Source: Amphiscolops sp. MND2022 (lineage: Eukaryota). From it: DNA of 64,000 nt. The DNA is taken from assembly GCA_964187785.1 (NCBI GenBank), contig OZ076409.1, forward strand, positions 9,736,001 through 9,800,000. Direction: 5' to 3'. Both the position numbers and the translations under genes were made by a program. Within the stretch, counting starts at the first letter, position 1. Each line of letters begins with the position of its first letter. Shown here piece by piece: positions 7,366 to 34,995 of this stretch. Under the pieces are notes generated by a model, which did not search any database, had not been told where the DNA came from, and was given only the letters and a program-made list of their open reading frames with translations.

Positions 7366-7525
7366 CAACCTTCAAAGGTATGAAGCTATCGAAATTTGTG
7401 AAATGCTGATCGGCAATTCTTTCGCTTTAGCCGATTACGCTTGGAAAAACTGGCAGACGGAATCCGATGTGTCATTGTGGCAAAAAAGAAGAGACTACAG
7501 AACGTTTCTTTCTGGCATGTGGCCT
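4518..7525 (+). pseudogene. LINE ORF2 copy 2 (tandem duplicate plus the 3' end of ORF2)
   Basis: Near-identical to 1667-4517 and shares its lesions (FADA, frameshifts). Continues past 7365 into the ORF2 C-terminus. Confidence 0.92.
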
Positions 7526-8522: not shown

Positions 8523-8787
8523 AAGTTTTGAATATAAAGCTAAGTGTCTAAAGTTGCTAATATTTTTCCCGTGCAAGAACCCGTTGTTGGTGTGGAATCC
8601 AAGGAAGCCTGCTAAGCTGGCAAAAACTCATGTTTTTGGGCAATAACGTGTTTTTGGGCAACGACTTCCATTTAGATTCCTGAAGTACCATGTTGCAACA
8701 GTATCACTGGATCATTGGATGGTGGCAACCAAGATGTGAACGTCCTCTCTCGTTTGTCGAGGACGACAAACTACGGCCCGGGGAGGA

Positions 8788-9540
8788 TGTAACGTCCGGC
8801 AGTCGGCGTTGCAGAAGTTTTTGAAAATTTCGATCAAAAATTCGAAATGTGCGACATCAAACAAGCACATTCAAGATGGCCGACCCGGCAGGTACAAAAA
8901 CCGTAGAGGAAGCAGAAAAAAGGCAAAACACGCCCAGAAAGACCCAACCCACCACCCAGGAACGAGAATGTCCGAGATGTCATCACCCAGAAGGCGTGAG
9001 AATCAGGAATTCGGCCATCTGACAGCAAAAAGACAGGGTTTTGGCAGAAAAGTGCCAAATGAGACCATTGTGCCCCGAAGATGAGGAATGATGCCAGAGG
9101 CAGGAAGCCGATGATCGCCACCGAACTGTAACTGTATACTTTATTGGGGCCTATCCCCACCTACTTTGACTGTTTATGGCGTATTTGGATAATGTTTGAC
9201 CTACTAGGGCCTCATTTTAGTCCTTATTCACCAATATAATGTATTTCAGCTAGACACCTTTTTGGACCTCGGAAGTATGTAGGAGATAGCAGGAACGCGC
9301 TAAAAACCTTAGGATTTGTTTTTACAGGCTTGTGGGGCGTGTCCGGACTTTGAGAGTGCCGGCACGTCGCCTCGGAGCTCTAACTAGAGGAGCCTCCTTA
9401 GACGTTAGAAAAGTCCCCCATGGAGACCATTTTGGGATCAAAAACTAGTGTTTAGGAGTGTAGTAAGACAACGGTCTCCTGTTTAAGCACCCTAGGCATT
9501 GTCCCTCTTCCTAGATGTGCGCCGCTAGCCGGACGTTACA
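8788..9540 (+). repeat. LTR 1 (753 bp)
   Basis: Begins TGTAACGTCCGGC and ends GCCGGACGTTACA (13-bp terminal inverted repeat, TG...CA). Confidence 0.93.
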
Positions 9541-12500: not shown

Positions 12501-13127
12501 TTGTTTCCATCTCTTGCATATACACTGGTGCTTGTACTGCCTAGACAATAACTTTAACTGAGCGTACACTGTGGACACAATAGATTGAATAGTTTCTCAT
12601 TTCTGGCGATATTTTTGCTTTTTTGAAGCCTGTTTCACCATTGGTGCTAGTTATTGTGCAGATTCTGTTGGCCATGAACTTTGCAAGACCACAGCTGTTA
12701 CTTTTATTTTTCGCTTTTCAAGTGCTATCGTGCATTTTATAAAACCTAACCTATCAGGCGGACCCCAGGTCAGTGCCAAACCTATTGTGATGAGTGCTTT
12801 TTATGCAGATGCAATAAGGTGCTAAAAATTTTGAAATTTTGGTGCGAAATTAAAAGTTTGAAATTGTTTTGAATATAAAGCTAAGTGTCTAAAGTTGCTA
12901 ATATTTTCCCGTGCAAGAACCCGTTGTTGGTGTGGAATCCAAGGAAGCCTGCTAAGCTGGCAAAAACTCATGTTTTTGGGCAATAACGTGTTTTTGGGCA
13001 ACGACTTCCATTTAGATTCCTGAAGTACCATGTTGCAACAGTATCACTGGATCATTGGATGGTGGCAACCAAGATGTGAACGTCCTCTCTCGTTTGTCGA
13101 GGACGACAAACTACGGCCCGGGGAGGA

Positions 13128-13880
13128 TGTAACGTCCGGCAGTCGGCGTTGCAGAAGTTTTTGAAAATTTCGATCAAAAATTCGAAATGTGCGACATCAA
13201 ACAAGCACATTCAAGATGGCCGACCCGGCAGGTACAAAAACCGTAGAGGAAGCAGAAAAAAGGCAAAACACGCCCAGAAAGACCCAACCCACCACCCAGG
13301 AACGAGAATGTCCGAGATGTCATCACCCAGAAGGCGTGAGAATCAGGAATTCGGCCATCTGACAGCAAAAAGACAGGGTTTTGGCAGAAAAGTGCCAAAT
13401 GAGACCATTGTGCCCCGAAGATGAGGAATGATGCCAGAGGCAGGAAGCCGATGATCGCCACCGAACTGTAACTGTATACTTTATTGGGGCCTATCCCCAC
13501 CTACTTTGACTGTTTATGGCGTATTTGGATAATGTTTGACCTACTAGGGCCTCATTTTAGTCCTTATTCACCAATATAATGTATTTCAGCTAGACACCTT
13601 TTTGGACCTCGGAAGTATGTAGGAGATAGCAGGAACGCGCTAAAAACCTTAGGATTTGTTTTTACAGGCTTGTGGGGCGTGTCCGGACTTTGAGAGTGCC
13701 GGCACGTCGCCTCGGAGCTCTAACTAGAGGAGCCTCCTTAGACGTTAGAAAAGTCCCCCATGGAGACCATTTTGGGATCAAAAACTAGTGTTTAGGAGTG
13801 TAGTAAGACAACGGTCTCCTGTTTAAGCACCCTAGGCATTGTCCCTCTTCCTAGATGTGCGCCGCTAGCCGGACGTTACA
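13128..13880 (+). repeat. LTR 2 (753 bp)
   Basis: Appears identical to 8788-9540 by eye; preceded by the polypurine tract. Confidence 0.93.
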
Positions 13881-14263
13881 GCAATACCATTGTCGACTAC
13901 ATCTCACATCCAACGAAGTTAAAAGGAATCGTATAGCGCTCATCATTAAATCCTAACTTAACTTTATCCAACTCAATGCTGTCTTTGTACTATTTATATA
14001 CGATGAACACCCTCCCGCAAATTGGGGATATTAGAAAAAATATATAAATAAGTTAATGCGTTAAGTGTATAAGTTAAATTGTTTAAGTTAATATGCACAG
14101 AGAAGATGTCACTTTTCCCACTCAGGTTGTGTTTCTTTGAGCGGAGCCTGAAATCCATAATCGCCAATTACTGGTTTCTTGTTCATACTTCCTTGCAAAA
14201 AATTGCAACGAATAATTGGTTTCACAAAGTTTAGATCCCAATGTGATGGACTTTTTTTCAGAA

Positions 14264-14460
14264 ATGACTAAGGGAGATGATAACTCAGCTTCGATCAACT
14301 GGCGGGCTGATCAGAGCATTGCACCTCCCTTTTTTCATCACTTGGTGACTGATGATCCATATTTGGTCCCTTATGAAGGAGATTTCCGCTATCGCTACAC
14401 TGAGTTCAAAAAATCTCTTGATGCAATCGAAGCCGATGAAGGAAGCATCTTGAAATTTGC
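14264..14460 (+). CDS. GBE1: 1,4-alpha-glucan branching enzyme, coding exon 1
   Basis: MTKGDD...DPYLVPYEGDFRYRY...EGSILKF; GTAAGT donor at 14461. Confidence 0.88.
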
Positions 14461-15632: not shown

Positions 15633-16916
15633 GTAAGTTGAACCTTTGATGATAACATTCAACAGTGATTGCTACTGACTACAATCAAGCCTTGACAACA
15701 TCTCCATTTTAAGACGAGCAATGTCTAGCATAGTGATATTAATTCAGCTATTTGTTAATTCTCCTCTTACCAAGGTTTTCAATATTTATTTATATGGTGG
15801 CACCGTTAGTGCCACTGCAAGGAGACTGCAGCTTGCAGCGTATACAACACCCTCTTCAGCTCTCTCCGAATCGCTCTCCTTTTCACACGGGCCCTTTTTG
15901 TATTTGTCTCAACATGAAAAATGGGTTTCGGTACGCACGCACGGTCGTTTTTAGTCAGCGCATTTTAGTAGAAAATGTGCCCGGCTCTTACAGTGTTTTT
16001 TTTACAGAATTTTTCAGACGCGTAAGGTCCATTTTTTTGTTCAACTTGACCAAAACATACCGCAAACCCCAGAACCTCATCCAAAATTATAAAACCGACG
16101 TCCAGAACCTCGAAAACACCTAAGGATCACCACTTTGGCTATCTTCGTGTTTTTCACATTTTTTCGGCACTATAAGACTTTTTCGAAAAATTTTTTTATT
16201 GTACCAAAGGGTCTCCCTTCGATTTTTTTGATATTTTGGAACATCAAAAGGTTCCACCTTTCAGATTTTTCGGTACTGTGAGACTGTTCAAAATTCATTT
16301 TTCATCTGATATTAGGTTTTCTCCAATACATATCCACCAATATTTTTTTCAATACTATTCGAAATTTTACCGCAATATCCGGAGTAAAGCGCTATATCCG
16401 AATTTTTGACGTTATATCCGAAGTATATTCCGTTTTACTGAGAAGGAGGCGGAGGTTCGAAAACAAGCGCTCGCATTTGTCCTAGCTGTGAAAGCAGTGG
16501 AGTATACGAGAATTTAAAATTCGAATTTTGTGATATAGAGTTTATGATGAGATAAAATGCATCGCGTAGGGAGTTATTGTTGAAATGCCAGTGTAAACTT
16601 TTAGGATTATTACAAATACAACTTGCTAATGTACAAGTTTTATTCGATTTTGTTGAAGAGATTTTAGACACTATTTCAGGATTGTTACGAAAGAGATAAC
16701 CTATTTTTTACAATCTATTCAGAGTTGTCGTATTTTAGAAATTATTAAGAACTGACATTACAGTGAAGAAGAAACTAAGCAAAATAACTTAAATTGAGAA
16801 CAATCAATATCCGTAACCTGAGTAATACCATATATCAAAGAATAGTAAAATATATAACAAAGAATAGTAACAGAATAATAAAATATGCAATGATGTCTAG
16901 ATGCACAATCAATAAT

Positions 16917-17505
16917 AACAAGACGGGAACGTCTAAAGTCGGCGCTATATCTAAGGCTCAAAAAAACGCTAAGTTTTTAAACTTGTAAAAGGGGGACCCT
17001 TTCGGCTTTTTGAAAATCCAGTCTGTTGCAAAATATCAAAAAAAAATTGAAGGAGACAATAGAAAAATTCGGATTTTTTTAAAAAAAACTTTCGAAAAAA
17101 CGAAAAATGAAAATTTTGAAACAGTCTCACAGTGCCGAAAAACTAGAAAGGGGGACCCTTTGGGCTTTTTGAAACTTCAGTTTGCTGCAAAATATCAAAA
17201 AACTTGAAGGGGGGACCGTTTGGCGACAAAAGAAAATTCTAAAAAAAAGTCGCACAGTGCCGAACAAAAATCAAAGGGGGGACCCTGTAGTCCCGTCCGG
17301 TTTTGTATCTTACGTTAAAAATTGAGTACACGAAAACGGGGACCCTTTGCAGTAACTCAGATGTGATTCCGCTTGCCGGTTCAGTACTTTTAGTAGTTCT
17401 GTAAAAAGTGTCCACTACGCATACATTCTGTGGTCTGACGAAAAAAAAAAAACTTGCCACTGTAATAGTCGGGCTCATTTTCTTCTAAAATGCGCCGACT
17501 AAAAA
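16917..17505 (-). mobile_element. Helentron-associated interspersed element (HINE / DINE-1-like), full length
   Basis: Minus strand: TTTTT-AGTCGGCGC...CCCGACT at the 5' end and GCGCCGACT-TT-AGACG-TTCC-CGTCT-TGTT at the 3' end (subTIRs plus terminal hairpin); no TSD seen. Confidence 0.75.
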
Positions 17506-17579
17506 TGTTTTAAACATGAAAACTAATACGTCCGCGGCAAAAAGGTACAGTTTGATGGGCCGTAATTTGGCAGACCTTT

Positions 17580-18857
17580 TTATTCAAGGCAATACTTTTT
17601 TGCGGACATGAACTCAAGCTCATACTCGAGGCAGTTTTGTTTCCGTTGATAGTTGTTGGTAGCCTCGCCAGTGTTAGCATCAGGTTGAGGGATAACAGTG
17701 TTAAAATTGTTGGCATCTCCGTTGGAAGTGTCAGATGCTCGTGTAGTAATACCGGTCGATGATGTTCCTCTTCCAGCGCTATTGATAGAAGGTATTCTTT
17801 GACCGGTTCCACTAGTCGTAGCCTGTTGGAAGGAAGTTTGGGGTGGTGTATGAGGTCGGGGAACAACATAACCAGCTTGAACTGTCCCGGGAGTATCGGG
17901 GACAACAGCGCTGATGCGCTTTGTATTGCAAATCTTTATAACTTGTCTCGCTGCAAAATGTAAGGTTGTATTACATCCATTGAGATAACATGCAACGGGG
18001 AGTTGTTGGACCCCATTGCAACAGCAGCTGTGGAAGGCTTCAACCAACCGTGAATTCGGAAACTGCCATTTTCATTTATTAATGACACAATTTATAACTG
18101 CATCCTCGAAGTCGAACTCATAAAAATTGTCAGTATCTGGGACGAGAGAGTTATAACTGTCACTGAAAACCGTAACGACGCGTTTTGAAGTGAAATAAAC
18201 ACTAAGGGAGCCGACGCGCTCTCCTTTCAGTTCATCACAAACTAATTCTATTGTGACACCCGAAGAATGTTTTTTCAAGTCAGTTTCTTTACAGCCACAT
18301 AGTTCCTTCAATATTTGACCGTCACAAAATTTACCACTACATAGCTAAGACACTGTACAAACTGATATGACTTGAAGGGTTACCGTTTTGAAGCAAAAAT
18401 GTTGGAAATCTGCCATTTTAAGAGAGTATTTTGGCAGCAGAGCTGAACATTCTTGAAGGAATATAGGGACTACAGGCTCGGCAGTAGTCAATAAGGGATT
18501 GTCTGAGTCTTGCAAAAATTTTTCGTCTCGGTGACGCGGATTCAGTAGTAAACATGTTGCACCGGTTGTAGATTGGGCGAGAAACGTAACAATTGGGAAG
18601 TTTTGGCGTCGTTGGAAGTGAACATCCCGAAAACTTTCATTACCTCCTTCAGCAAAAAGCAAGAAGCGATGGAAAGCTGCCTCCATAATTTTTGCTTTCT
18701 CCCGGATCCGATACATCCTTACTGGGGTCGGTGTCTTCTTCGTCCTTTGAGAACCTTCTTTGGGAATTATAACATCATCCAATGTCACACCTGAGAATCT
18801 GGAGCTCACCAAATTCATGGCACGTTCCAACGATAAATTAGCAGAAATCAGAGGCAT
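17580..18857 (-). pseudogene. Decayed ORF-B of an unclassified element; Cys motif CSGKFCDGQ-x5-CGC, GWLKP motif, Ser/Thr/Pro-rich tail
   Basis: ORF-track pieces 18345-18866, 18072-18311 and 17580-18047 join through a stop and frameshifts into one ~420-codon reading. Confidence 0.55.
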
Positions 18858-19389
18858 TGTACACAAATCTGAAGCTAGTAGACGATCAGATGTAAGAATG
18901 AATCTTGTTGATGCAATTTTAAATTAAAAGCAAGGAAACCTAAATATTTATATTCGTTCATCAACAATGTTAAAAGTCCGTTATGAAGGCTATCAGAGGA
19001 AATGGTAGCCTTGATGAACAGTATGTATACGGTTCAGTAGTTTATTGAATCTATTGAAAAACTTTACGGAGTTCAATCATGAAAGTATTGTATTGAATAC
19101 TTTGAGAGTACAATGAACTATGGAGCATAAATTATGATCGCGTTAAAAAATAATAGTGTATATAAAAAAAACTAACGAAAACGTTATTAACGAATCGTTT
19201 AATTTCACATTTTATTTTAAACAACTTTCAATTTATGAGTTGATCATTACTACAAAATATAAGCCTCATCAAATGATTGATTCACAATAATTACATATGA
19301 TCGTTTTCGAACAACTACAGAAAAAAGCTCAAAGACTAATTTGAAAGTTTCACAAAGTAATCATACATTGATCACTTACAATGATAAGA

Positions 19390-20610
19390 GATAAGTTAAT
19401 GACAAATCCTAATGAATTTTTCGATTGGACAGGAAAGAAAAATAGCAGATATCTCTGGAAATAGTTGCAGGCCACCAGTTGCATGCGATTACCTGAGAGA
19501 TGAATTTTTCATGTTACAGGTACAGACTTGCCGAGAAAATTCTCACCAGTTAGCTGAGTACCTTGTTGGAATCAGATTGGTTTGTAGATGAAATTTATTG
19601 GCACCTGTCGAATATGGTAATGAGAAATATCGTTGTTCATTTGTTATTCATGGTAGGCTGTTCGTATCATGGGTTATGAAGACAGGTTACTAGGGCCGAG
19701 ATATCCCAGACCAGACTTTTGAGAGAACAAAAATCAAATTAATACGGGAGCGACCGGTATCACTGTGTTCACAGGTTGCTCCCGCATTGGGAAATTTCAA
19801 CCGTAGTGAGTTTTCCCACCACAACGATTTGCAGCATAATTTCTTGATTATTCGGAAAAGCGCAATGAATGGATTGGTGTGCAAGAATAACAACGTCTTC
19901 GGGGCTTGCAGATCTATTCGTCCTGACATCAAAGGCGACATTTGAGTGTATTTGTTGTTCTAATTGCATGCGCTGTCGTTCGTTATTGGACATGTCGGCT
20001 GTGTCGAATCCTGTAATGTAAGGAAATACACCCCCAAGGACGTCGTTGAATCGGCTTTGTAAATGATGCTCCTTGTCCAGCATTATGCTCATACAAACGT
20101 CGTGACAGACAGCGTTTCTCCGACGTAAACCAAATTTGGATAGGGACAACTAACAAGAATATACACATAACCGAGTTTGGAAATAGGTAGACATCGGAAA
20201 AAAGGTTTGAATTGTATTGTTTCACAGTGAAGAATTGGTCACGAGTGGGGCCTGCTTCTGACATCATTATTTCCAGGAAGCTTTCAATGTAAGTAGTTTG
20301 ATGGGAAATTCGACCAATTGTGAGCTTAAAGGTATTCATCTTGTCATCTTTTGGACCAACGAATGTTATGTTACTCAGATTTTGTACACGACCATCAAGA
20401 CAAATAGTTGTTCTCGATGTCAAATGGAGTAACTGCGGTCAGTCGGTGAGATTTTAGTCTGAGTTGATGGAAGAGTACAACCTATTGCTATGTGAATTGT
20501 ACTAGAAATATAATTTTTCAAAGGAAACTGAGTTCGTCTGATGGATATGTGAAGATAGGAAATCATATTCCCAGTTCGTCTTATGAGCACTGGTCTCCAG
20601 CCATATGCCA
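19390..20610 (-). pseudogene. Decayed ORF-C of an unclassified element (unknown function)
   Basis: Overlapping frameshifted minus-strand ORFs (19983-20423, 19769-20149, 19690-19941) with protein-like composition. Boundaries are approximate. Confidence 0.4.
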
Positions 20611-22153
20611 AACTTTTCAAAATTTGATAAGGAATTGTTGATGGCATCGTGCCAAATGATGGTGGGTCGATCATTGTTGAAATTGGCATTCTTTAGGGCA
20701 TGCTTCAACTTTTTGTTAAGAGAACTTGCACCAATCACATTGAACTTCATCATAGCCACTTGAAATGAAAGAGATCATTTGGACTACGCACATGTATTCG
20801 CTTAACAAACCCGCTAAAGTATTGAACATTCGAAAGAACAAGCTAGCTACTCGTTCATCAATAACTTTGTACGTAACTTTCAATCCAAATCAGAAAATTA
20901 AAAAACGTTCCGGACAAATGAGGCCGAGTATAACTCTTGCCGTAACGGTTATAGAATTTTCGATTAGTTAAAGCCGATTTAACGTACGTTGAGAACTTAC
21001 TAAATATGTATATCAAAACTAGGCCGAGCATTGCTCATGTTGAATAAAAAACAAAAATTTAAATCATCGAGGTTGAGTATTACCCATGCTGTTTAAATTT
21101 AGAAATGATAAGCTGAACAGAAAACGTTCACGTACTAAAGTTCAATGTAAAGTATATAAAATAAAGGAGTTAAATAAAGTAAATTAATGAGATAAACTAA
21201 AGCTGTTATTTTATACCATTCTTTTGATCTTCGTATGTTGCTCTAACTCGGCGTCGTACCTGTAAAACAAATAGATTTTAGACAACAATGAGAAATAATT
21301 TTTAAAGGAAACTACATTATAAAATGAGAATGTACCAAAGTGTCTCCCCTTCAATTTTTGAGATTTTGGAACATAATAGATGTTTGAAAATTCCAAAGAG
21401 TTCCCCGTTTCAGATTTTTTGGCATTATGAGACTTATCAAATTTCATTTTTCATCTGATATCAGGTTTTCTCAATACGTATCCACCAATCAATACTATCC
21501 GAAGTTTGAACTCAATATTCGGAGTAAAGCGCTATATCCGAATTTTTGACGTCATATGACGTTTTTTTTACCGTTGACTACTCATTTGTTGGGTGGTGCT
21601 GCAGTTGTTACAATCAGAGACTTTTAGCAAACATGCCACAGTTTTGGCATTTGGTAACAAATCGTCTCCTTCGAGGAGGCAATTTGCAAATCATGATCTG
21701 AAAGACAAAAAAATCTTTTGAATGTAATGAAATGAAATATCGATGGGCCCATATGTAGACTGGTCATTAGTAGACGTATAATCGTAACCGAAAAGTATGC
21801 TCTCAAATTGTATAATTGTTGCAAAAGTTCATGAAAATCGTAATCTAAGTAAACCATTATGAATCACTTTTTGAAATGAGTTTCAAGTAGATTAGAAAGA
21901 CTAAAGAACTCGATCAGTTAATCAAAAGTTTTCAAGAGTTAATAAAAACGTTTTCAATTTAACAAACGCGCATTAGACAAACGCAAAACTAATAGGATTC
22001 AACTCATCATCAGTAAATGAAAACAGTAAATCGCAAGTCACAATGCGTTAATAAACAGTTCACAATTTAAACGAAAGTGTTTAAAAAGCTGATCACAAAA
22101 CAGAAATCTAGCTTCCATGTTGCATCAAACAACTGAACGCAACAACAAAGAAC

Positions 22154-22747
22154 TATTTATTAAAATTCAATTTTCCAAGATACTGTCTCTTTGACGGCCG
22201 ATTTTTTCCAGGAATTCGCCATTTTCCAGGACCTCTGGTCAGTCCAATTAAACTTTGGCATAGCTGCAGAATCTCGAAACATTTAAATTCTAAGTTTTTG
22301 TTTGGATGGAGAACTGTAGTATCATTAGATTTATATTCTGGCGGCAGATATCTTTCATGTCCAGGTAAATTATTCCTGGCGGTGACCCATCCGGGAGGCA
22401 GGAATTAAAGTAAATCACAGAATCATTCCTGAGGAAAAACAGGAAGGCAACAACACCATATGCTCTGCATTCGTCTAGGTAATCATACAATTCTTTTCTA
22501 CTGAGAGCCAAACTCTTTAAAAAATTTGATGAGGAATTGTGGATGGCATCGTGCCAAATGATGGTGGGTCGATCATTGTTGAATTTGGCATTCTTTAGGG
22601 CATGCTTCAACTTTTTGTTTGGATATCCTTTAACATCTCTAGTGAATGCCTTCCCTGGTTCTGATTTTGTTTCATTTGGTCTTTTGTCAGGCCCTAATGT
22701 TTTATTTTGCCAAGAGAACTTGCACCAATTACATTGAACTTCAACAT
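22154..22747 (-). pseudogene. SGNH/GDSL hydrolase-like ORF, copy A (others at ~24156-24746, 26432-26728, 20620-20753)
   Basis: Stitched reading gives MLKFNVIGASS (block I-like), SEPGKAF (II), IIWHDAI(H/N)NS (III) and DTTVLHP (V), in SGNH order; frameshifted. Confidence 0.55.
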
Positions 22748-24899
22748 AGCCACTTGAAATGAAAGACAGATCATTTGGACTACGCCCATGTATTCGCTTA
22801 AAAAACCAGCTAAAGTATTGAACATTCGAAAGAACAAGCTAGCTACTCATTCATCAATAACTCTGTACGTAACTTTCAATCCAAATCAGAAAATTAAAAA
22901 ACGTTCCGGACAAATGAGGCCAAGTGTAACTCTTGCCGTAATGGTTATAGAATTCTCGATTAGTTAAAGCCGATTTAACGTACGTTGAGAACTTACTAAA
23001 TATGTATATCAAAACTAGGCCGAGCATTGCTCATGTTGAATAAAAAACAATTTAAATCATCGAGGTTGAGTATTACCCATGCTGTTTAAAATTAGAAATG
23101 ATAAGCTGAACAGAAAACGTTCACGTACTAAAGTTCAATGTAAAGTATATAAAATAAAGGAATTAAATAAAGTAAATTAATGAGATAAACTAAAGCTGTT
23201 ATTTAATACCATTCTTTTGATCTTCGTATGTTGCTCTAACTCGGCGTCGTACCTGTAAAACAAATAGATTTTAGACAACAATGAGAAATAACTTTAAAAG
23301 GAAACTACATTATAAAATGAGAATGTACCAAAGTGTCTCCCCTTCAATTTTTGAGATTTTGGAACATAACAGATGTTTGAAAATTCCAAAGAGTTCCCCC
23401 TTTCAGATTTTTTGGCATTATGAGACTTATCAAATTTCATTTTTCATCTGATATCAGGTTTTCTCAATACATATCCACCAATCAATACTATCCGAAATTT
23501 GAACTCAATATTCGGAGTAAAGCGCTATATCCGAATTTTTGACGTCATATGACGTTTTTTTTACCGTTGACTACTCATTTGTTGGGTGGTGCTGCAGTTG
23601 TTACAATCAGAGAGACTTTTAGCAAACATGCCACAGTTTGGGCATTTGGTAACAGATCGTCTCCTTCGAGGAGGCAATTTGCAAATCACGATCTGAGAGA
23701 CAAAAAACTTTTGAATGTAATGAAATGAAATATCGATGGGCCCATATGTAGACGGGTCATTAGTAGACGTATAATCGTAACCAAAAAGTATGCTCTCAAA
23801 TTGTATAATTGTTGCAAAAGTTCATGAAAATCGTAATCTAAGTGAACCATTATGAATCACTTTTTGAAATGAGTTTCAAGTAGATTAGAAAGACTAAAGA
23901 ACTCGATCAGTTAATCAAAAGTTTCCAAGAGTTAATAAAAACGTTTTCAATTTAACAAACGCGCATTAAACAAACGCAAAACTAATAGGATTCAACTCAT
24001 CATCAGTAAATGAAAACAGTAAATCGCAAGTCACAATGCGTTGAAAAACAGTTCAGAATTTAAACGAAAGTGTTTAAAAAAGGTGATCACAAAACAGAAA
24101 TCTAGCTTCAATGTTGCATCAAACAACTGAACGCAACAACACAACACAAAGAACTATTTATTAAAATTCAGTTTTCCAAGATACTGTCGCTTTGACGGCC
24201 GATTTTTTTCAGGAATTCGCCGTTTTCCAGGACCTTTGGTCAGTCCAATTAAACTTTCGCATAGCTGCAGAATCTCGAAACATTTAATTTCTAAGTTTTT
24301 GTTTGGATGGGGAACTGTAGTATCATAAGATTTATATTCTGGCGGCAGATATCTTTCATGTCCAGGTAAATTATTCCTGGCGGTGACCCATCCGGGAGGC
24401 AGGAATTCAAGTCAATCACAGAATCATTCCTGCGGAAAAACAGGAAGGCAACAACACCATATGCTCTGCATTCGTCTAGGATATCATACAATTCTTTTCT
24501 AGTGAGAGCCAAACTCTTTAAAATTTGATAAGGAATTGTTGATGGCATCGTGCCAAATGATGAGGGGTCGATCATTGTTGAAATTGGCATTCTTTAGGGC
24601 ATGCTTCAACTTTTTGTTTGGATATCCTTTATCATCTCTAGTGATTGCCATCCCTGGTTCTGATTTTTTTGTTTCAATTGGTCTTTTGTCAGGCCCTAAT
24701 GTTTTATTTCAAGAGAACTTGCACCAGTTACATTGAACTTCAACATAGCCACTTGAAATAAAAGACAGATCATTTGGACTACGTACATGTATTCGCTTAA
24801 CAAACCCGCTAAACCCGCGGACAAATGAGGCCGTGTATAACTCTTGCCGTAAAGTGTTATAGAATTCTCGATTAGTTAAAGCCGATTTAACGTACGTTG

Positions 24900-25967
24900 A
24901 AAACTTACTGAATATGTACCCGCTTTCATATGGTGTGCAACTTAAGACTGTATAACAGCGGGCGCAAGTCTGTCGGTACATTTTTGGGGATATGAACCAG
25001 TAGCGGGATTTGTAGGAGAATGAACGTATTGGAGATGAGACCCTCTGTTGTGGTCACAACAGATTACTATTAAAGGGCCGTGTTATCTACTAAGATAAAT
25101 AGGTTTACTCATGAAACCATGGTGGTCTTCGTCGTCTAGCCAATCAGACCGAGCTCCTTTTAGATGTTTCCTGTAATCTGCGCTAAAAAATGTAAAGGAA
25201 GGGAAAAGCTTATTAAGGAAATGTTGCAATGAAATGTAACCAATGTATTTTTTGTCTGTGAACGTAGTGCATCCGAAGGGACATCTCACATCAAGAAAAG
25301 CAGTTTTTTGTGAGAGTCTTCATTTTCATCTAGAATATTTCTCTTTTATTTCGTTTAATTTCAACTTCAACGGTAACATCTGCAAAGTTACAATGTGGAG
25401 AGTTAGAAAAGGCTGAGTGTCGTAACAAATGCTGCCAAAAGATCTGTAAAGACGGTGGTATTATTTGCCAAATGTGAACCCCATGTGTTGGTTTTTCAAC
25501 AGATAATAAACAAGTTAACAGAGCAGATGGCCAGCCGAATTCCCATCTGTCTGATGTAGTAGTTCTGCTCAAATAGGTAAAACATAATTCACAAACGAGA
25601 ACACTGACTCCAGATCCAACTTTCGCCCCTAGTCTCCTTTTCACTATTGAGTTAACAGACACCTCTAGCAACGGACCACATATAAGACGGGACATTTACA
25701 ACATTCTTCTTCAGTAACCGGGATCTGATCTAATTCACTGAGATCGGGAAATAGTGATTCTGCATTACTGCTGGGTATGGCTGAAACAATTGGTGAACTT
25801 ACAGTTTGTGATTCCACTGAGGCCGAGATTACTTCGTTCTCAGACCGTTGACTACTCATTTGTTGGGTGGTGCTGCAGTTGTTACAATCAGAGAGACTTT
25901 TAGCAAACATGCCACAATTTGGGCATTTGGTAACAGGTCTCTTTCGAGGAGGCAATTTGCAAATCAT
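24900..25967 (-). pseudogene. Decayed ORF-A of an unclassified element; N-terminal part of a large Cys-rich protein
   Basis: CPNC..CNNC, CELC...GWPSA, RCPFGC...LKGARSDWL and HGPLIVICCDHNRG...YVHSPTNP read colinearly across stops and frameshifts; truncated near 24900. Confidence 0.55.
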
Positions 25968-27631
25968 GATCTGAAAGACAAAAAAAACTTTTGAATGTAA
26001 TGAAATGAAATATCGATGGGCCCATATGTAGACTGGTCATTAGTAGACGTATAATCGTAACCGAAAAGTATGCTCTCAAATTGTATAATTGTTGCAAAAG
26101 TTCGTGAAAATCGTAATCTAAGTAAACCATTATGAATCACTTTTTGAAATGAGTTTCAAGTAGATTAAAAAGACTAAAGAACTCGATCAGTTAATCAAAA
26201 GTTTTCAAGAGTTAATGAAACGTTTTCAATTGAATAAACGCGCATGAAACAAACGCAAAACTAATAGAATTCAACTCATCATCAGTAAATAAAAACAGTA
26301 AATCGCAAGTCACAATGCGTTAAAACAGTTCAGAATTTAAACGAAAGTGTTTAAAAAGGTGATCACGAATAAGAAATCTAGCTTCAATGTTGCATCAAAC
26401 AACTGAACGCAACAACACAAAAAACTATTTATTAGAATTCAATTTTCCAAGATACTGTCGCTTTGACGGCCGATTTGTTCCAGGAATTCACCGTTTTCCA
26501 GGGCCGTAAGGAATTGTTGATGGCATCGTGCCAAATGATGGGGGGTCGATCATTGTTGAAATTGGCATTCTTTAGGGCATGCTTCAACTTTTTGTTTCGA
26601 TATCCTTTAACATCTCCAGTGAATGCCATCTCTGGTTCTGATTTTATTTGTTTCAATTGGTCTTTTGTCAGGCCCTAATATTTTATTTTGTCAAGAGAAC
26701 TTGCACCAATTACATTGATTTTCAACATAGCCACTTGAAATAAAAGACAGATCATTTGGACTACGTACATGTATTCGCTTAACAAACCCGCTAAAGTATT
26801 GAACATTCCAAAGAACAAGCTACACATTCATCAATAACTTTGCACGTAACTTTCAATCCAAATCAGAAAATTAAAAAACGTTCCGGACAAATGAGACCGA
26901 GTATAACTCTTGCCGTAATGGTTATAGAATTCTCGATTAGTTAAAGCCGATTTAACGTACGTTGAGAACTTACTAAATATGTATATCAAAACTAGGCCGA
27001 GCATTGCTCATGTTGAATAAAAAACAAAAATTTAAATCATCGAGGCCGAGTTTTACCCATGCCATTTAAAATTAGAAATGATGTGCTGAACAGAAAACGT
27101 TCATGTACTAAATTTCAATATAAAGCATTCAATTTAATGGAATTAATTAAAGTAAAATAATGTAAATTAAGTAATATAATGAGGTAAACTAAAGCTCTTA
27201 TTTTTTTATACCATTCTTTTGATCTTCGTATGTTGCTCTAACTCGGCGTTGTACCTGTAAAAGAAATAGATTTTAGACAACAATGAGAATTAAATTTTAA
27301 AGGAAACTACATTATAAATTGAAAATGTACCAAAGCGTCTCCCCTTCTATTTTTGAGATTTTGGAACATAATAGATGTTTGAAAATTCCAAAGGGTCCCC
27401 CCTTTCTGATTTTCGGCATTATGAGACTGTTCAAAATTGATTTTCATCTGATATTAGGTTTTCTCAATACATATCCACCAATAATTTTTTTCAATACTAT
27501 CTGGAATTTGAACGCAATATCCGGAGTGAAGCGCTATATCCGAATTTTTGACGTTATATCCGAAGTATATTCCGTTTTACTGAGGAGGAGACGGAGGTTC
27601 AAAAACGAGCGCTCGCATTTGTCCCAACCGC

Positions 27632-30600
27632 TCCATCCGAATTTCTGAAGCGTTTTTTCCACCACGCAAGGCTTCCTTTTGGGTGAAACTTTTTTGTGAG
27701 TTTTTCATTTAAAAAACGTCATGAGCATGTTTTGAAAACATTGCACTTTTTGAGCCTTAGATATAGCGCCGACTTTGGCCGTTCCCGGTTTGTTAAATTT
27801 AAGTGTTGACTTTGTTTGTCAAGATTGTCGATGTCTTTCAGCAGAGGTGTCATATTTATTCAAGCAACCGCCCTTAAGAGTCGCACTATCGCAGATATGA
27901 AAAATGAAACTCTCGGTTCTTTTCGAAAAAAAACATTGCTACAAGTTTATGTTACTATCCTTTTTGGCAACTATGAATTTTCTGGTAGTTATATGGATTT
28001 AGGTAGACTTTCTGAAAATTGTTTTGTTTGCCAAATTAGCTGTAGTAATCAGGACAAAATCAGGTTATTTTAGAGAAAGATTTCGAAAATCGCTGTGCCA
28101 AAAAAACACCGGGAAAACCCTTTTGTCTCAAAGTTTTGTAATTCAAATTAAATAGAAGAAAATCAAAGGGGAACCCTTTGTACCCTTTTGACCTTCGTTA
28201 GATCTCATTCGTAGTCAGGGTTGCTTAAAAATCGGATTCTTATTTATCGCTTGATTTGAATCAGATTTTTGTTTTTTGCTTGATTTGAATGAATTTTATT
28301 CTCATTGGGGAAAACGAGGTTTGTTTCAAAGATCAATTAGTTCATTGAACTAAAGCATTGAATATATTGATTCAGAATACGGAAACAAAATACGAGTTTT
28401 CCACATTTTTCAATTCCCAGTCGATTTCTCATACTGGAATGCTCGAAACCAAATGTGCTGAACAGCCTCTGTAATTCAGCCGTTGTAGTCATGCATGACA
28501 GAATCCTTTGGATGCGTTCCTTCAATTCGCTGTCCATCGGCACTAAGGAGTACCAGTCGGCAGGACTCACAGCATGAAGAGCCTCATCCGTAAACATGGT
28601 CGGCATGAAAGCCTCTTAGCCAACTCGAAACTTTATTATAATTCCAACCAGCTTCGGGTCCAATTTCAGGTCCATCCGAACTTCTGAAGCGTTTTCCCAC
28701 CACTCAAGGCTTCCTTTTGGGTGAAACTTGTTTGTGAGTTTTTCATTTAAAAAAACGTCATGAGCATGTTTTGAAAACATTGCACTTTTTGAGCCTTAGA
28801 TATAGCGCCGACTTTTGCCGTTCTCGGCTTGTTAAATTTGAGTGTTGACTATGTTTGTCAAGATTGTCGATGTCTTTCAGCAGAGGTGTCATATTTATTC
28901 AAGCAACCGCCCTTAAGAGTCCCACTATCGCAGATGTGAAAATGAAACTCTCGGTTCTTTTCGAAAAAAAACATTGCTACAAGTTAATTTTACTATCCTT
29001 TTTGGCAACTATGAATTTTCTGGTAGTTATATGGATTTAGGTAGACTTTCTGAAAATTGTTTTGTTTGCCAAATTAGCTGTAGTAATCAGGACAAAATCA
29101 GGTTATTTTAGAGAAAGTTTTCGAAAATCGCTGTGCCAAAAAACACCGGGAAAACCCTTTTGTCTCAAAGTTTTGTAATTCAAATTAAATAGTAAGAAAA
29201 TCAAAGGGGAACCCTTTGTACCCTTTTGACCTTCGTTAGATCTCATTCGTAGTCAGGGTTGCTTAAAAATCGGATTCTTATTTATCGCTTGATTTGAATC
29301 AGATTTTTGTTTTTTGGTTGATTTGAATGAATTTTATTCTCATTGGGGAAAACGAGGTTTGTTTCAAAGATCAATTAGTTCATTGAACTAAAGCATTGAT
29401 TATATTGATTCAGAATACGGAAACAAAATACGAGTTTTCCACATTTTTCAATTCCCAGTCGATTTCTCATACTGGAATGCTCGAAACCAAAGGTGCTGAA
29501 CAGCCTCTCTAATTCAGCCGTTGTAGTCATGCATGACAGAATCCTTTGGATGCGTTCCTTCAATTCGCTGTCCATCGGCACTAAGGAGTACCAGTCGGCA
29601 GGACTCACAGCATGAAGAGCCTCATCCGTAAACATGGTCGGCATGAAAGGCTCTTAGCCAACTCGAAACTTTATTATAATTCCAACCAGCTTCGGGTCCA
29701 ATTTCAGGTCCATCCGAACTTCTGAAGCGTTTTCCCACCACTCAAGGCTTCCTTTCGGGTGAAACTTGTTTGTGAGTTTTTCATTTAAAAAAACGTCATG
29801 AGCATGTTTTGAAAACATTGCACTTTTTGAGCCTTAGATATAGCGCCGACTTTTGCCGTTCTCGGCTTGTTAAATTTGAGTGTTGACTATGTTTGTCAAG
29901 ATTGTCGATGTCTTTCAGCAGAGGTGTCATATTTATTCAAGCAATCGCCCTTAAGAGTCCCACTATCGCAGATGTGAAAAATGAAACTCTCGGTTCTTTT
30001 CGAAAAAAAAACATTGCTACAAGTGTATGCTACTTATCCTTTTTGGCAACTATGAATTTTCTGGTAGTTGTATGGATTTTGGTAGACTTTCTGAAAATTG
30101 AATTGTTTGCCAAATTAGTTGTAGTAGTCAGGACAAAATCAGGTTATTTTAGAGAAAGTTTTCGAAAATCGCTGTTCCAAAAAACACCGGGAAAACCCTT
30201 TTGTCTCAAAGTTTTGTAATTCAAATTAAATAGTAAGAAAATCAAAAGGGGAATCCTTTGTACCCTTTTGACCTTCGTTAGATCTCATTCGTAGTCAGGG
30301 TTGTTTAAAAATCGGATTCTTATTTATCGCTTGATCTGAATCAGATTTTTGTTTTTTGCTTGATTTGAATGAATTTTATTCTCATTGGGGAAAACGAGGT
30401 TTGTTTCAAAGATCAATTAGTTCATTGAACTAAAGCATTGAATATATTGATTCAGAATACGGAAACAAAATACGAGTTTTCCACATTTTTCAATTCCCAG
30501 TCGATTTCTCATACTGGAATGCTCGAAACCAAAGGTGCTGAACAGCCTCTCTAATTCAGCCGTTGTAGTCATGCATGACGGAATCCTTTGGATGCGTTCC

Positions 30601-33600
30601 TTCAATTCGCTGTCCATCGGCACTAAGGAGTACCAGTCGACAGGACTCACAGCATGAAGAGCCTCATCCGTGAACATGGTCGGCATGAAAGGCTCTTAGC
30701 CAACTCGAAACTTTATTATAATTCCAACCAGCTTCGGGTCCAATTTCAGGTCCATCCGAACTTCTGAAGCGTTTTCCCACCACCCAAGGCTTCCTTTTGG
30801 GTGAAACTTGTTTGTGAGTTTTTCATTTAAAAAACGTCATGAGCATGTTTTGAAAACATTGCACTTTTTGAGCCTGAGATATAGCGCCGACTTTTGCCGT
30901 TCTCGGCTTGTTAAGTTTGAGTGTTGACTATGTTTGTCAAGATTGTCGATGTCTTTCAGCAGAGGTGTCATATATATTCAAGCAACCGCCCTTGAGAGTC
31001 GCACTATCGCAGATGTGAAAAATGAAACTCTCGGTTCTTTTCGAAAAAAAACATTGCTACAAGTTTATGCTACTTATCCTTTTTGGCAACTATGAATTTT
31101 CTGGTAGTTATATGGATTTAGGTAGACTTTCTGAAAATTGAATTGTTTGGCAAATTAGCTGTAGTAATCAGGACAAAATCAGGTTATTTTAGAGAAAGTT
31201 TTCGAAAATCGCTGTGCCAAAAAACACCGGGAAAACCCTTTTGTCTCAAAGTTTTGTAATTCAAATTAAATAGTAAGAAAATCAAAGGGGAACCCTTTGT
31301 ACCCTTTTGACCTTCGTTAGATCTCATTCGTAGTCAGGGTTGCTTAAAAATCGGATTCTTATTTATCGCTTGATTTTAATCAGATTTTTGTTTTTTGGTT
31401 GATTTGAATGAATTTTATTCTCATTGGGGAAAACGAGGTTTGTTTCAAAGATCAATTAGTTCATTGAACTAAAGCATTGATTATATTGATTCAGAATACG
31501 GAAACAAAATACGAGTTTTCCACATTTTTCAATTCCCAGTCGATTTCTCATACTGAAATGCTCGAAACCAAAGGTGCTGAACAGCCTCTCTAATTCAGCC
31601 GTTGTAGTCATGCATGACAGAATCCTTTGGATGCGTTCCTTCAATTCGCTGTCCATCGGCACTAAGGAGTACCAGTCGGCAGGACTCACAGCATGAAGAG
31701 CCTCATCCGTAAACATGGTCGGCATGAAAGGCTCTTAGCCAACTCGAAACTTTATTATAATTCCAACCAGCTTCGGGTCCAATTTCAGGTCCATCCGAAC
31801 TTCTGAAGCGTTTTCCCACCACTCAAGGCTTCCTTTCGGGTGAAACTTGTTTGTGAGTTTTTCATTTAAAAAACGTCATGAGCATGTTTTGAAAACATTG
31901 CACTTTTTGAGCCTTAGATATAGCGCCGACTTTTGCCGTTCTCGGCTTGTTAAGTTTGAGTGTTGACTATGTTTGTCAAGCCGTTCTCGGCTTGTTAAGT
32001 TTGAGTGTTGACTATGTTTGTCAAGATTGTCGATGTCTTTCAGCAGAGGTGTCATATTTATTCAAGCAATCGCCCTTAAGAGTCCCACTATCGCAGATGT
32101 GAAAAATGAAACTCTCGGTTCTTTTCGAAAAAAAAACATTGCTACAAGTGTATGCTACTTATCCTTTTTGGCAACTATGAATTTTCTGGTAGTTGTATGG
32201 ATTTTGGTAGACTTTCTGAAAATTGAATTGTTTGCCAAATTAGTTGTAGTAGTCAGGACAAAATCAGGTTATTTTAGAGAAAGTTTTCGAAAATCGCTGT
32301 TCCAAAAAACACCGGGAAAACCCTTTTGTCTCAAAGTTTTGTAATTCAAATTAAATAGTAAGAAAATCAAAAGGGGAATCCTTTGTACCCTTTTGACCTT
32401 CGTTAGATCTCATTCGTAGTCAGGGTTGTTTAAAAATCGGATTCTTATTTATCGCTTGATCTGAATCAGATTTTTGTTTTTTGCTTGATTTGAATGAATT
32501 TTATTCTCATTGGGGAAAACGAGGTTTGTTTCAAAGATCAATTAGTTCATTGAACTAAAGCATTGAATATATTGATTCAGAATACGGAAACAAAATACGA
32601 GTTTTCCACATTTTTCAATTCCCAGTCGATTTCTCATACTGGAATGCTCGAAACCAAAGGTGCTGAACAGCCTCTCTAATTCAGCCGTTGTAGTCATGCA
32701 TGACGGAATCCTTTGGATGCGTTCCTTCAATTCGCTGTCCATCGGCACTAAGGAGTACCAGTCGACAGGACTCACAGCATGAAGAGCCTCATCCGTGAAC
32801 ATGGTCGGCATGAAAGGCTCTTAGCCAACTCGAAACTTTATTATAATTCCAACCAGCTTCGGGTCCAATTTCAGGTCCATCCGAACTTCTGAAGCGTTTT
32901 CCCACCACCCAAGGCTTCCTTTTGGGTGAAACTTGTTTGTGAGTTTTTCATTTAAAAAACGTCATGAGCATGTTTTGAAAACATTGCACTTTTTGAGCCT
33001 GAGATATAGCGCCGACTTTTGCCGTTCTCGGCTTGTTAAGTTTGAGTGTTGACTATGTTTGTCAAGATTGTCGATGTCTTTCAGCAGAGGTGTCATATAT
33101 ATTCAAGCAACCGCCCTTGAGAGTCGCACTATCGCAGATGTGAAAAATGAAACTCTCGGTTCTTTTCGAAAAAAAACATTGCTACAAGTTTATGCTACTT
33201 ATCCTTTTTGGCAACTATGAATTTTCTGGTAGTTATATGGATTTAGGTAGACTTTCTGAAAATTGAATTGTTTGGCAAATTAGCTGTAGTAATCAGGACA
33301 AAATCAGGTTATTTTAGAGAAAGTTTTCGAAAATCGCTGTGCCAAAAAACACCGGGAAAACCCTTTTGTCTCAAAGTTTTGTAATTCAAATTAAATAGTA
33401 AGAAAATCAAAGGGGAACCCTTTGTACCCTTTTGACCTTCGTTAGATCTCATTCGTAGTCAGGGTTGCTTAAAAATCGGATTCTTATTTATCGCTTGATT
33501 TTAATCAGATTTTTGTTTTTTGGTTGATTTGAATGAATTTTATTCTCATTGGGGAAAACGAGGTTTGTTTCAAAGATCAATTAGTTCATTGAACTAAAGC

Positions 33601-34995
33601 ATTGATTATATTGATTCAGAATACGGAAACAAAATACGAGTTTTCCACATTTTTCAATTCCCAGTCGATTTCTCATACTGAAATGCTCGAAACCAAAGGT
33701 GCTGAACAGCCTCTCTAATTCAGCCGTTGTAGTCATGCATGACAGAATCCTTTGGATGCGTTCCTTCAATTCGCTGTCCATCGGCACTAAGGAGTACCAG
33801 TCGGCAGGACTCACAGCATGAAGAGCCTCATCCGTAAACATGGTCGGCATGAAAGGCTCTTAGCCAACTCGAAACTTTATTATAATTCCAACCAGCTTCG
33901 GGTCCAATTTCAGGTCCATCCGAACTTCTGAAGCGTTTTCCCACCACTCAAGGCTTCCTTTCGGGTGAAACTTGTTTGTGAGTTTTTCATTTAAAAAACG
34001 TCATGAGCATGTTTTGAAAACATTGCACTTTTTGAGCCTTAGATATAGCGCCGACTTTTGCCGTTCTCGGCTTGTTAAGTTTGAGTGTTGACTATGTTTG
34101 TCAAGCCGTTCTCGGCTTGTTAAGTTTGAGTGTTGACTATGTTTGTCAAGATTGTCGATGTCTTTCAGCAGAGGTGTCATATATATTCAAGCAACCGCCC
34201 TTGAGAGTCGCACTATCGCAGATGTGAAAAATGAAACTCTCGGTTCTTTTCGAAAAAAAAAACATTGCTACAAGTTTATGCTACTTATCCTTTTTGGCAA
34301 CTATGAATTTTCTGGTAGTTATATGGATTTAGGTAGACTTTCTGAAAATTGAATTGTTTGGCAAATTAGCTGTAGTAGTCAGGACAAAATCAGGTTATTT
34401 TAGAGAAAGTTTTCGAAAATCGTTGTGCCAAAAAACACCGGGAAAACCCTTTTGTCTCAAAGTTTTGTAATTCAAATTAAATAGTAAGAAAATCAAAAGG
34501 GGAACCCTTTGTACCCTTTTGACCTTCGTTAGATCTCATTCGTAGTCAGGGTTGCTTAAAAATCGGATTCTTGTTTATCGCTTGATTTGAATCAGATTTT
34601 TGTTTTTTGCTTGATTTGAATGATTTCTATTCTCATTGGGGAAAACGAGGTTTGTTTCAAAGATCAATTAGTTCATTGAACTAAAGCATTGATTTTATTG
34701 ATTCAGAATACGGAAACAAAATACGAGTTTTCCACATTTTTCAATTCTCAATCGATTTCTCAAACTGGAATGCTCGAAACCAAAGGTGCTGAACAGCCTC
34801 TCCAATTCAGCCGTTGTAGTCATGCATGACAGAATCCGTTGGATGCGTTCCTTCAATTTACTTTCCATCGGCACTAAGGAGTACCAGTCGGCAGGACTCA
34901 CAGCATGAAGAGCCTCATCTGTAAACATGGTCGGCATGAAAGGCTCTTTGCCAATCCGAAACTTTATTATAATTCCAACCAGCTTCGGATCCAAT
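27632..34995. repeat. Tandem array of 7 x ~1.04-kb units (HINE 3' end + spacer + hAT terminus + hAT transposase 3' end)
   Basis: Units start TCCATCCGAA at 27632, 28671, 29709, 30751, 31790, 32876 and 33915; the last unit runs into the full hAT element. Confidence 0.97.

Follow-up and report, generated by a model that had tools for sequence, protein, structure and literature searches.

Helentrons and elements of the HLE2 clade encode a large RepHel protein with a Cys-rich N-terminus, a Helitron_like_N domain and a PIF1 helicase with a nuclease fused behind it, a layout shared by the intact relatives of the element described here, with an OTU domain in some members (PMC4067079). The Rep motif 2 of Helentrons has the signature ExQxRGSPHxH (PMC4067079), and DUF6570 is the marker of the HLE2 clade (PMC11417382). 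A RepHel element with a GIY-YIG domain, ascribed to a single capture event, is mentioned for the HLE2 element HelenSM92 of Sphagnum magellanicum in the accessible part of its description (PMC11417382), the one mention of this layout that we found in print.

In the window, a stretch of 64,000 nucleotides, a GBE1-like gene harbors a decayed element of comparable type in its third intron:

15633-36959, plus strand: GBE1-like (glycogen branching enzyme) intron 3, 21.3 kb, GT-AG, phase 0

The exon upstream of the intron matches branching enzymes in PDB (E 7e-30), and the next exon begins at 36960. As the earlier note described, positions 17510-27300 within this intron hold decayed coding remnants, all co-oriented on the minus strand and carrying the motifs that it quoted. 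Intact relatives match the remnant ORFs at E-values of 1e-41 to 1e-110, so that these ORFs are not chance open frames. We consider the remnant very probably a dead copy, with an internal deletion and a partial duplication, of a transposon that is likely of the rolling-circle, Helitron-like type; the same proposal in the earlier note is supported by intact RepHel relatives. Judged by protein matches, the element has three genes, encoding RepHel, an SGNH-like protein and ORF-B. Close relatives of these genes (57-78% identical) are recorded on other contigs. Annotation databases gave little: Rfam had zero matches in 15600-37000, Pfam had none above cut-off for the raw window fragments (a GIY-YIG fragment reached E 0.15), and NCBIfam and PHROGs provided no useful match for the element.

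The RepHel gene and its place among Helitron-like elements

The RepHel gene is represented by three segments:

24918-25967, minus strand: ORF-A pseudogene, Cys-rich RepHel N-terminal part (profile positions ~95-360 of 2,386), truncated by a junction near 24918
20393-20606, minus strand: ORF-C 5' part, C-terminal PIF1 (SF1B) helicase motifs (20599-20393), starting at the junction with an SGNH fragment
19834-20390, minus strand: ORF-C 3' part, PIF1 domain end, linker and frameshifted SLX1-like GIY-YIG nuclease (~20210-19834), forming the RepHel C-terminus

Four different ORFs had been counted here, but ORF-A and ORF-C are, on sequence comparison, the N- and C-terminal parts of one Helitron-like RepHel. 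Both are matched by 20 of the 24 ORF-A relatives of at least 2,000 aa, and none of the 150 ORF-A-relative matches listed lies elsewhere in the window. Against a RepHel family profile (25 sequences, 2,386 positions), the window matches only at 95-360 (ORF-A) and 2107-2381 (ORF-C). The ORF-A relative P0007 matches 346 clusters at E<=1e-3. A domain scan of 21 of these matches, including 19 of at least 1,800 aa, detected PIF1 in 17, Helitron_like_N in 13 and GIY-YIG in 13 of the 19 (E<=0.01), which verifies the link of ORF-A to PIF1-bearing proteins that the earlier note had suggested.

The intact relatives are single RepHel proteins of 2,200-2,800 aa, which combine an HUH/Y2 Rep and a PIF1 helicase with an SLX1-like GIY-YIG nuclease at the C-terminus. 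Alignment A2 shows no variation at their HUH histidines or at the first tyrosine of motif 3, and almost none at the second. A search of the RepHel profile against PDB returned PIF1 helicases at up to 105 bits, Helraiser at 87 bits (E 3e-24) and SLX1 at E 2e-12. The fusion of an HUH/Y2 Rep with an SF1B helicase of PIF1 type, by which HLEs are recognized, is thus present in the intact relatives, and the Rep is deleted from the window copy. As no Rep motif occurs within the window, rolling-circle activity is attributed to the element from relatives at 26-45% identity. The suggestion that the Rep/helicase part was lost holds for the Rep and the ATPase core, whereas the helicase C-terminus and the fused GIY-YIG are kept as ORF-C; the statement that no helicase motif is present is contradicted by the same PIF1 motifs, which precede the frameshifted nuclease.

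Several standard markers are missing from the family. The AP endonuclease (Exo_endo_phos) was detected in none of the 21 RepHel relatives, whereas GIY-YIG was found in 13 of them and in the window copy; DUF6570 was found neither in these 21 nor in either RepHel piece of metagenomic locus L003. The nuclease therefore differs from that of Helentrons in being GIY-YIG/SLX1-like, and Rep motif 2 reads E(F/Y)Q..GNxPHxH-like rather than ExQxRGSPHxH, with the signature RG(S/L)(P/L)HxH in none of the 25 aligned relatives. The canonical Helitron motif RGLPH is likewise absent in 25 of 25, and no 5'-TC or hairpin-CTRR-3' ends were found. Like the canonical Helraiser (PDB 7LCC), the relatives join a Y2 HUH Rep to an SF1B helicase; however, they are ~1,000 aa longer, and their profile scores cellular PIF1 above Helraiser. 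Helitron2 also lacks the AP endonuclease, offers a precedent for a reversed RepHel, and has asymmetric terminal inverted repeats and hairpins at both ends, seen here in flanking HINE pieces that are candidate ends, but the accessible part of its account describes neither a fused GIY-YIG nor the ORF-B family (PMC3627910). HelenSM92 is likewise a RepHel element with a GIY-YIG domain, and its short terminal inverted repeats and TT sites recall the local HINE ends; in this comparison by description, ORF-B and SGNH do not appear in the accessible part of the text (PMC11417382). The main text on the "new class" of Paramecium Helitrons, compared by description, does not mention GIY. Replitrons were rejected on account of their Y1 Rep and their lack of a helicase.

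Altogether, these features mark the remnant as part of a Helitron-like lineage that is little described, not as an element of a new kind. That it represents a widespread, undescribed third HLE branch outside HLE1/HLE2, defined by a fused SLX1-type GIY-YIG, its own zinc-ribbon OB-fold gene (ORF-B, not in Pfam) and antisense genes, and acting as master of abundant HINEs, is a bolder idea that we regard as doubtful.

The SGNH-like gene, ORF-B and their association with RepHel

The window copy lacks the Rep and the greater part of the helicase (~1,750 aa); ~4.3 kb of tandem copies of the SGNH-bearing end stand in their place, and this replacement renders the copy dead. These duplications of ~2 kb, which the earlier note did not mention, bring the SGNH-like gene to four copies:

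22156-22931, minus strand: most complete SGNH-like pseudogene copy
24157-24909, minus strand: second SGNH-like copy
26428-26908, minus strand: SGNH-like copy with a ~290-bp deletion
20607-20945, minus strand: truncated SGNH-like copy
20607-24918, minus strand: filler replacing the Rep and helicase core, ~2.15 tandem copies (units 20711-22704 and 22705-24702, 95.7% identical)
25844-27559, minus strand: repeated end segment, copy in the source position (HINE fragment, spacer, SGNH, second spacer and start of ORF-A)

Each filler unit contains a HINE fragment, a spacer, the SGNH gene, a further spacer and the first ~40 codons of ORF-A, and the source-position copy differs from the internal units by 4-10% substitutions. 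Intact relatives of the SGNH-like protein have 191-263 aa. Candidate SGNH residues (Ser, Gly, Asn and Asp/His of blocks I, II, III and V) follow one another in order and do not vary among four close copies, and ESM Atlas returned SGNH clusters at 0.91-0.92 with low shared counts (107-126). The protein has no Pfam or PDB match, and its AlphaFold model (pLDDT 39.0) was unusable, leaving the Foldseek search with it uninformative. The duplicates differ at 3 synonymous and 25 non-synonymous of 187 codons and hence show no sign of selection; a second comparison gave 3 synonymous and 35 non-synonymous differences, inflated by misalignment at the deletion. Derivation of the filler units from distinct active subfamilies is not supported, as the unit differences are mostly non-synonymous. 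Several relatives align out to 20683-20698, as if "SGNH" were a shifted PIF1 frame; this reading was dropped because intact stand-alone SGNH-like relatives exist and a DNA junction lies at 20607. The gene is likely cargo. Fish Helitrons carry an SGNH-type gene, texim, upstream of the coding region (PMC4021074); compared by description, the gene here is likewise situated upstream but differs in having no Pfam match, and it is likely a separate capture.

The third gene lies at the other end of the block:

17658-18857, minus strand: ORF-B pseudogene with an internal stop, small deletions and frameshifts

Intact ORF-B relatives have 390-403 aa and a CX4C-X8-CXC motif, the four cysteines of which are invariant across three distant members. 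In both independent metagenomic elements (L001 and L003), an ORF-B relative lies within ~3-5 kb of RepHel on the same strand. The relative in L001 was matched at E 7e-10 and that in L003 at E 7e-4 (pairwise), and the two match each other at E 3e-46. Intact ORF-B scores 27.1 bits against a profile of L001 and L003 only, compared to at most 4.8 bits for 1,000 shuffles. A small ORF common to L001 and L003 has no counterpart in the window element. No match to ORF-B was found in Pfam, NCBIfam, PHROGs or PDB profile searches, and its AlphaFold model (pLDDT 31.6) was unusable, with an uninformative Foldseek search. ESM Atlas placed it among POT1/CTC1/MEIOB/RPA-OB clusters (scores 0.90-0.93, 151-178 shared features), and all 10 rows that name a family belong to one clan. 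ORF-B is thus likely an OB-fold (RPA-like) single-strand DNA-binding protein, a prediction from ESM Atlas features only. Helentrons similarly have a separate second ORF of RPA size, with 358 aa in mite vs ~400 aa here (PMC4067079).

A patchwork of unrelated decayed elements, in which independent SGNH and ORF-B insertions joined a RepHel fragment, would agree with the heavy rearrangement of the region and with the four metagenomic loci (L001-L004), where no SGNH relative was seen near RepHel. We nevertheless consider it very unlikely. RepHel is accompanied by ORF-B relatives in both independent distant loci, and all three genes are co-oriented. Moreover, relatives of SGNH, ORF-A and ORF-B recur on contigs of equal size (704,743 and 154,441), as do those of SGNH and ORF-B (604,172 and 92,405), each pair taken as the same contig from the equal size. 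The refuting pattern that the earlier note named, unrelated families without co-occurrence elsewhere, is not seen: ORF-A and ORF-C form one family, and close gene copies share other contigs as judged by size.

HUH Reps and GIY-YIG nucleases are also found in viruses, and the ORF-B fold is a prediction, which leaves room for an endogenous DNA virus with ORF-B as its structural protein. This option, raised earlier, gained no support and appears extremely improbable. Four pattern-based, low-sensitivity scans of IMG/VR (with ORF-B, its relative in L001 and a pair of RepHel alignments) yielded no locus, PHROGs gave no match, and phage records match the helicase only, at 21-34%. The helicase is SF1B rather than the SF3 of CRESS-DNA viruses, and no capsid gene, SF3 helicase, polymerase (PolB) or packaging ATPase was detected in the element or the relatives examined. 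A decayed Helitron-like transposon remains our reading of the locus.

HINE repeats, candidate element ends and proposed history

The absence of TIR ends that the earlier note reported holds for 17510-27300, but just outside this span lie asymmetric sub-terminal inverted repeats of HINE type, present in H1, H2, H3 and other local repeats:

15948-16482, plus strand: H1, HINE-type 5' part with T-run, one-mismatch sub-terminal repeat and hairpin, lacking a 3' end; candidate left end
16913-17505, minus strand: H2, complete HINE-type non-autonomous repeat with 5' sub-terminal repeat and hairpin, 3' sub-terminal repeat and hairpin, and T-rich flanks
27326-27795, plus strand: H3, HINE-type 3' part with 3' sub-terminal repeat, weak hairpin and T-rich end, lacking a 5' end; candidate right end
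27632-34996, plus strand: tandem array of seven ~1,040-bp copies, made up of the H3 3' end and DNA flanking it, at 0-4% divergence

H2 and its kin are non-coding and have a nested 5' inverted repeat, in addition to the sub-terminal repeats, 3' hairpin and T-rich flanks that the local repeats share with Helentron HINEs (PMC4067079). The 5' hairpin of H2 has a z of -3.96, and those at the 3' ends can be seen but are weak (z -1.8 to +0.6). H2 is likely a self-contained, separate insertion. The array also contains a weak hAT dimerisation fragment on the opposite strand.

Two placements of the element ends have to be weighed. In the first, a variant in boundaries that agrees with our main reading, the element spans 15948-27795 on the plus strand, with H1 and H3 as its own Helitron2-type asymmetric ends bracketing the antisense ORFs. 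Among five 5' ends found by motif, only H1 lacks its own 3' end, and H3 is a 3' end on the same strand without a 5' end. The two share a 280-bp block (11% divergent), and its portion at 16300-16482 has no match in eight other HINE copies. Outer H1 (151 bits, next 58) and outer H3 (102, next 67) both find their best match in the HINE at 59298-59893. A reversed RepHel orientation also has precedents in Helitron-2_CRe as well as Helitron-1_DR (PMC3627910) and in Helentron-Da-40 (PMC4067079). However, HINE pieces are common locally, with nine places outside the array that show a 5' or a 3' end; the 3' ends at 54334 and 46094 likewise have no located 5' end; and the H1-H3 overlap is unexpected for a simple two-ended element. 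The H3 junction recurs in the internal duplicates by local descent, and these therefore provide no independent evidence for it. We give this placement somewhat less than an even chance, and a role of the element as autonomous partner of the local HINEs, which the earlier note had raised, is suggestive but unproven.

In the second, to which we give an even chance, the ORF block ends near 16483-17510 and 27325 in termini of its own that have escaped recognition; H1, H2 and H3 are separate HINEs or one HINE split by the element, and another Helentron moves the HINEs. The completeness of H2 agrees with this, as do the mostly low pairwise likeness of the HINE copies (49-68%) and a RepHel family without the DUF6570, AP endonuclease and RGSPH signature of known HINE movers. 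A CTAG stands at the 16483 junction without a convincing hairpin, and CTAG occurs ~2 times per kb; as a bare CTAG, it was not accepted as a canonical Helitron 3' end. This second placement would leave it to coincidence that H1 and H3 are closely related and truncated in a complementary way.

By analogy with Helraiser, we propose that in an intact copy the Rep would nick one strand at the element 5' end, PIF1 would peel off the nicked strand, and ORF-B would coat it upon displacement; the strand would then be circularised and joined into a T-rich target without target duplication. The GIY-YIG, in the position of the Helentron AP endonuclease, may cut branched or flap intermediates or the target. 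The window copy probably lost the middle of RepHel and was patched via template switching onto its own end; local tandem duplication and neutral decay would have come afterwards.

As a dead intronic insertion, the window copy is of little importance alone, and the greater interest lies in the lineage. Its divergent RepHel proteins, of which there are hundreds, carry an SLX1-like nuclease at the end and conform to neither of the standard Rep signatures. The ORF-B family, overlooked by annotation with Pfam, supplies a marker gene and is a candidate partner for ssDNA binding. Two Helitron lineages would have fused unrelated nucleases at the same place, by which the role of the Helentron endonuclease becomes testable by comparison.

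ORF-A and ORF-C within the GBE1 intron

The element remnant sits within an intron of the glycogen branching enzyme (GBE1) gene:
15633-36959: host intron of GBE1, 21.3 kb, enclosing the element remnant

The exon upstream of this intron matches solved branching enzyme structures (E 7e-30), and the downstream exons restart at 36960. Elsewhere in the window, positions 1667-7365 hold a near-perfect tandem duplication of 2,851 bp (99.2%) with an internal ~154-bp repeat in each copy, representing either a recent event or an assembly artefact. Directly upstream of GBE1, 8087-9540 and 12866-14316 share two direct repeats in a permuted arrangement, one of ~1.0 kb (99.9%) and one of 0.44 kb (99.3%), the shorter of which extends into the GBE1 gene start; they are possibly a segmental duplication or a young LTR element.

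The decayed minus-strand ORF-A and ORF-C are parts of one gene, encoding the fused Rep and PIF1 helicase protein RepHel. Six-frame translation of ORF-C revealed PIF1-type C-terminal motifs, overlooked in the earlier note, which had reported no helicase motif, and a GIY-YIG nuclease split across three frames. ORF-A has one close relative found, P0007 (78% identity), and a search with this protein against 1.84 billion representatives gave 346 clusters at E ≤ 1e-3, the best 150 of which were taken further. Pfam scanning of 21 of these 150, picked by length or rank, identified PIF1 in 17, Helitron_like_N in 13 and GIY-YIG in 13 of the 19 proteins of at least 1,800 aa, which upholds the proposed link of ORF-A to PIF1-bearing proteins; four of the 21 showed an OTU domain, which passed the cut-off in two. 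Among the best 150, all 24 proteins with 2,000 aa or more align to ORF-A, and 20 of them also to ORF-C, with none of the 150 aligning in the window outside these two ORFs (tblastn, E ≤ 0.01). In the relative P0012, residues 559-813 correspond to window positions 25662-24897 and residues 2552-2746 to 20599-20013. This protein (residues ~59-78) and P0014 (~35-54) each have an N-terminal stretch ending in NPGP, which we take to resemble the 2A ribosomal-skip motif.

A profile of 25 long relatives (2,386 positions) matches the window at positions 95-360 and 2107-2381 and nowhere else, so that ~1,750 residues are missing, including Rep and the ATPase core. Every sequence in this alignment keeps the HUH histidines and the first tyrosine of motif 3, and nearly every one its second tyrosine. 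Read by eye, 18 of the 25 relatives extend to the GIY-YIG region (degenerate in two), and seven stop earlier. In the PDB, the family profile finds PIF1 helicases, Helraiser and SLX1.

Rearrangement and ends of the remnant

Self-comparison of the window revealed a ~2-kb unit at 20711-22704 and 22705-24702 (95.7% identity), portions of which recur at 25844-27559, 24703-24918 and 20607-20717. Each unit contains a HINE (short non-autonomous Helentron repeat) fragment, a spacer and the SGNH-like gene, plus the initial ~40 codons of ORF-A. The earlier reading of an internally deleted, possibly rolling-circle remnant is largely right. The four different ORFs reported there are borne out in part only: the span consists of repeated units, and relatives match both ORF-A and ORF-C as one gene. 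Along the minus strand, an SGNH-bearing end segment is followed by ORF-A, which extends to about profile position 360, ~2.15 end-segment copies, the helicase tail, GIY-YIG and ORF-B, with sharp junctions between segments. The internal units differ by 2-5% from one another and by 4-10% from the source-position copy, and distal blocks are more diverged (9% versus 4%, Fisher p ~0.001). Over 187 compared codons, the SGNH duplicates show 25 non-synonymous and 3 synonymous differences, as expected for local duplication following loss of function, the history we infer for this copy.

The HINE-type pieces around the remnant are:
15948-16482, plus strand: H1, 5' end only
16913-17505, minus strand: H2, complete, adjoining ORF-B
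27326-27795, plus strand: H3, 3' end only

The local short repeats fit the HINE description in PMC4067079, with a 5' T-run bearing a sub-terminal repeat and a hairpin, and a 3' sub-terminal repeat and a small hairpin. H1 and H3 flank the antisense ORFs on either side, and might be the element's own ends, making it the partner of the local HINEs. They have a 280-bp block in common (11% divergence) and the same best-matching HINE (59298-59893), and a reversed RepHel orientation has precedent in PMC3627910 and PMC4067079; however, HINE pieces are frequent in the window and the H1-H3 overlap is odd, leaving this reading tentative, at somewhat below an even chance.

Other repeats lie nearby. A seven-copy array of ~1,040 bp (27632-34996) combines a HINE 3' end with flanking DNA; copy 3 is almost identical to copy 5 and copy 4 to copy 6, a higher-order duplication, and the array's minus strand has a weak hAT dimerisation match (E 0.003). 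A decayed Tc1/mariner transposase look-alike, seen by eye, lies between two HINE 3' ends at ~54500-54950. A second short repeat family occupies 52812-53455, 48010-48312 and 60919-61229, and forms a 172-bp tandem array across 52898-53455.

Accessory genes

Scanning metagenomes with a five-sequence RepHel alignment yielded four loci representing two elements (L001=L002 and L003=L004 at 99.9%). In both long loci, L001 and L003, an ORF-B relative lies in the same orientation as RepHel: downstream of it in L001 (E 7e-10), the arrangement also seen in the window, and upstream in L003 (E 7e-4); the two relatives match each other at E 3e-46. A profile of these two alone scored intact ORF-B at 27.1 bits versus at most 4.8 bits in 1,000 shuffles, and matched window ORF-B at E 2e-4. 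Intact relatives span 390-403 aa. Four cysteines are invariant across three distant family members, and may resemble the RPA70 zinc ribbon. ESM Atlas features (POT1, CTC1, MEIOB and RPA-type OB folds, 0.90-0.93) point to an OB fold, only a likely reading because no HMM library searched (Pfam, NCBIfam, PHROGs, PDB profile) confirmed it and the structure model was unusable. ORF-B is a conserved accessory gene, and its association with the GIY-YIG Helitron-like lineage is new here.

The two loci also share a second small ORF (L001 7814-8218, minus; L003 1574-2029, minus; E 9e-14), which in each locus stands back to back with its ORF-B relative and has no Pfam match and no counterpart in the window element. 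L003 further contains a MYND-finger ORF (6795-7841) between the ORF-B relative and RepHel, and ~210-bp direct repeats (9240-9450 and 17960-18167; two blocks, 96% and 81%) flanking the RepHel gene.

In intact SGNH-like relatives (191-263 aa), candidate residues for blocks I, II, III and V follow one another in the expected order. Atlas listings for the SGNH-like protein include SGNH/GDSL clusters (0.91-0.92, low shared counts), with no match in Pfam or PDB searches. It is likely cargo restricted to this family, since none of L001-L004 showed a relative; fish Helitrons offer an earlier example of SGNH capture (PMC4021074). Element copies outside the window were traced via protein collections only. 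Contig records of 704,743 and 154,441 bp list relatives of SGNH, ORF-A and ORF-B, and those of 604,172 and 92,405 bp list relatives of SGNH and ORF-B, with equal length taken as a proxy for contig identity. The two members of each pair could be assemblies of a single locus, giving two co-occurrence loci beyond the window.

Relation to known Helitron-like elements

The lineage is not Helentron, because the Helentron AP endonuclease is absent from 21 of 21 scanned relatives and the RGSPH signature from 25 of 25 aligned ones. DUF6570, the HLE2 (Helentron and Helitron2) marker in PMC11417382, was not found in the 21 scanned relatives or in either RepHel piece of L003, and canonical Helitron signatures are absent. 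That paper (HELIANO) places GIY-YIG in one HLE2 family, HelenSM92, whose figure and Supplementary Table S11 may bear on existing coverage of the lineage. No GIY-YIG-RepHel link appeared in the accessible parts of PMC6431247, PMC12273014, PMC8788227, PMC13085455 and PMC10288648, nor any description of the lineage or ORF-B in the titles and abstract openings of the open-access literature listed. Altogether, the window preserves a dead remnant copy from a Helitron-like lineage that bears GIY-YIG, has been little described and, judging from its intact relatives, probably works like a Helitron.
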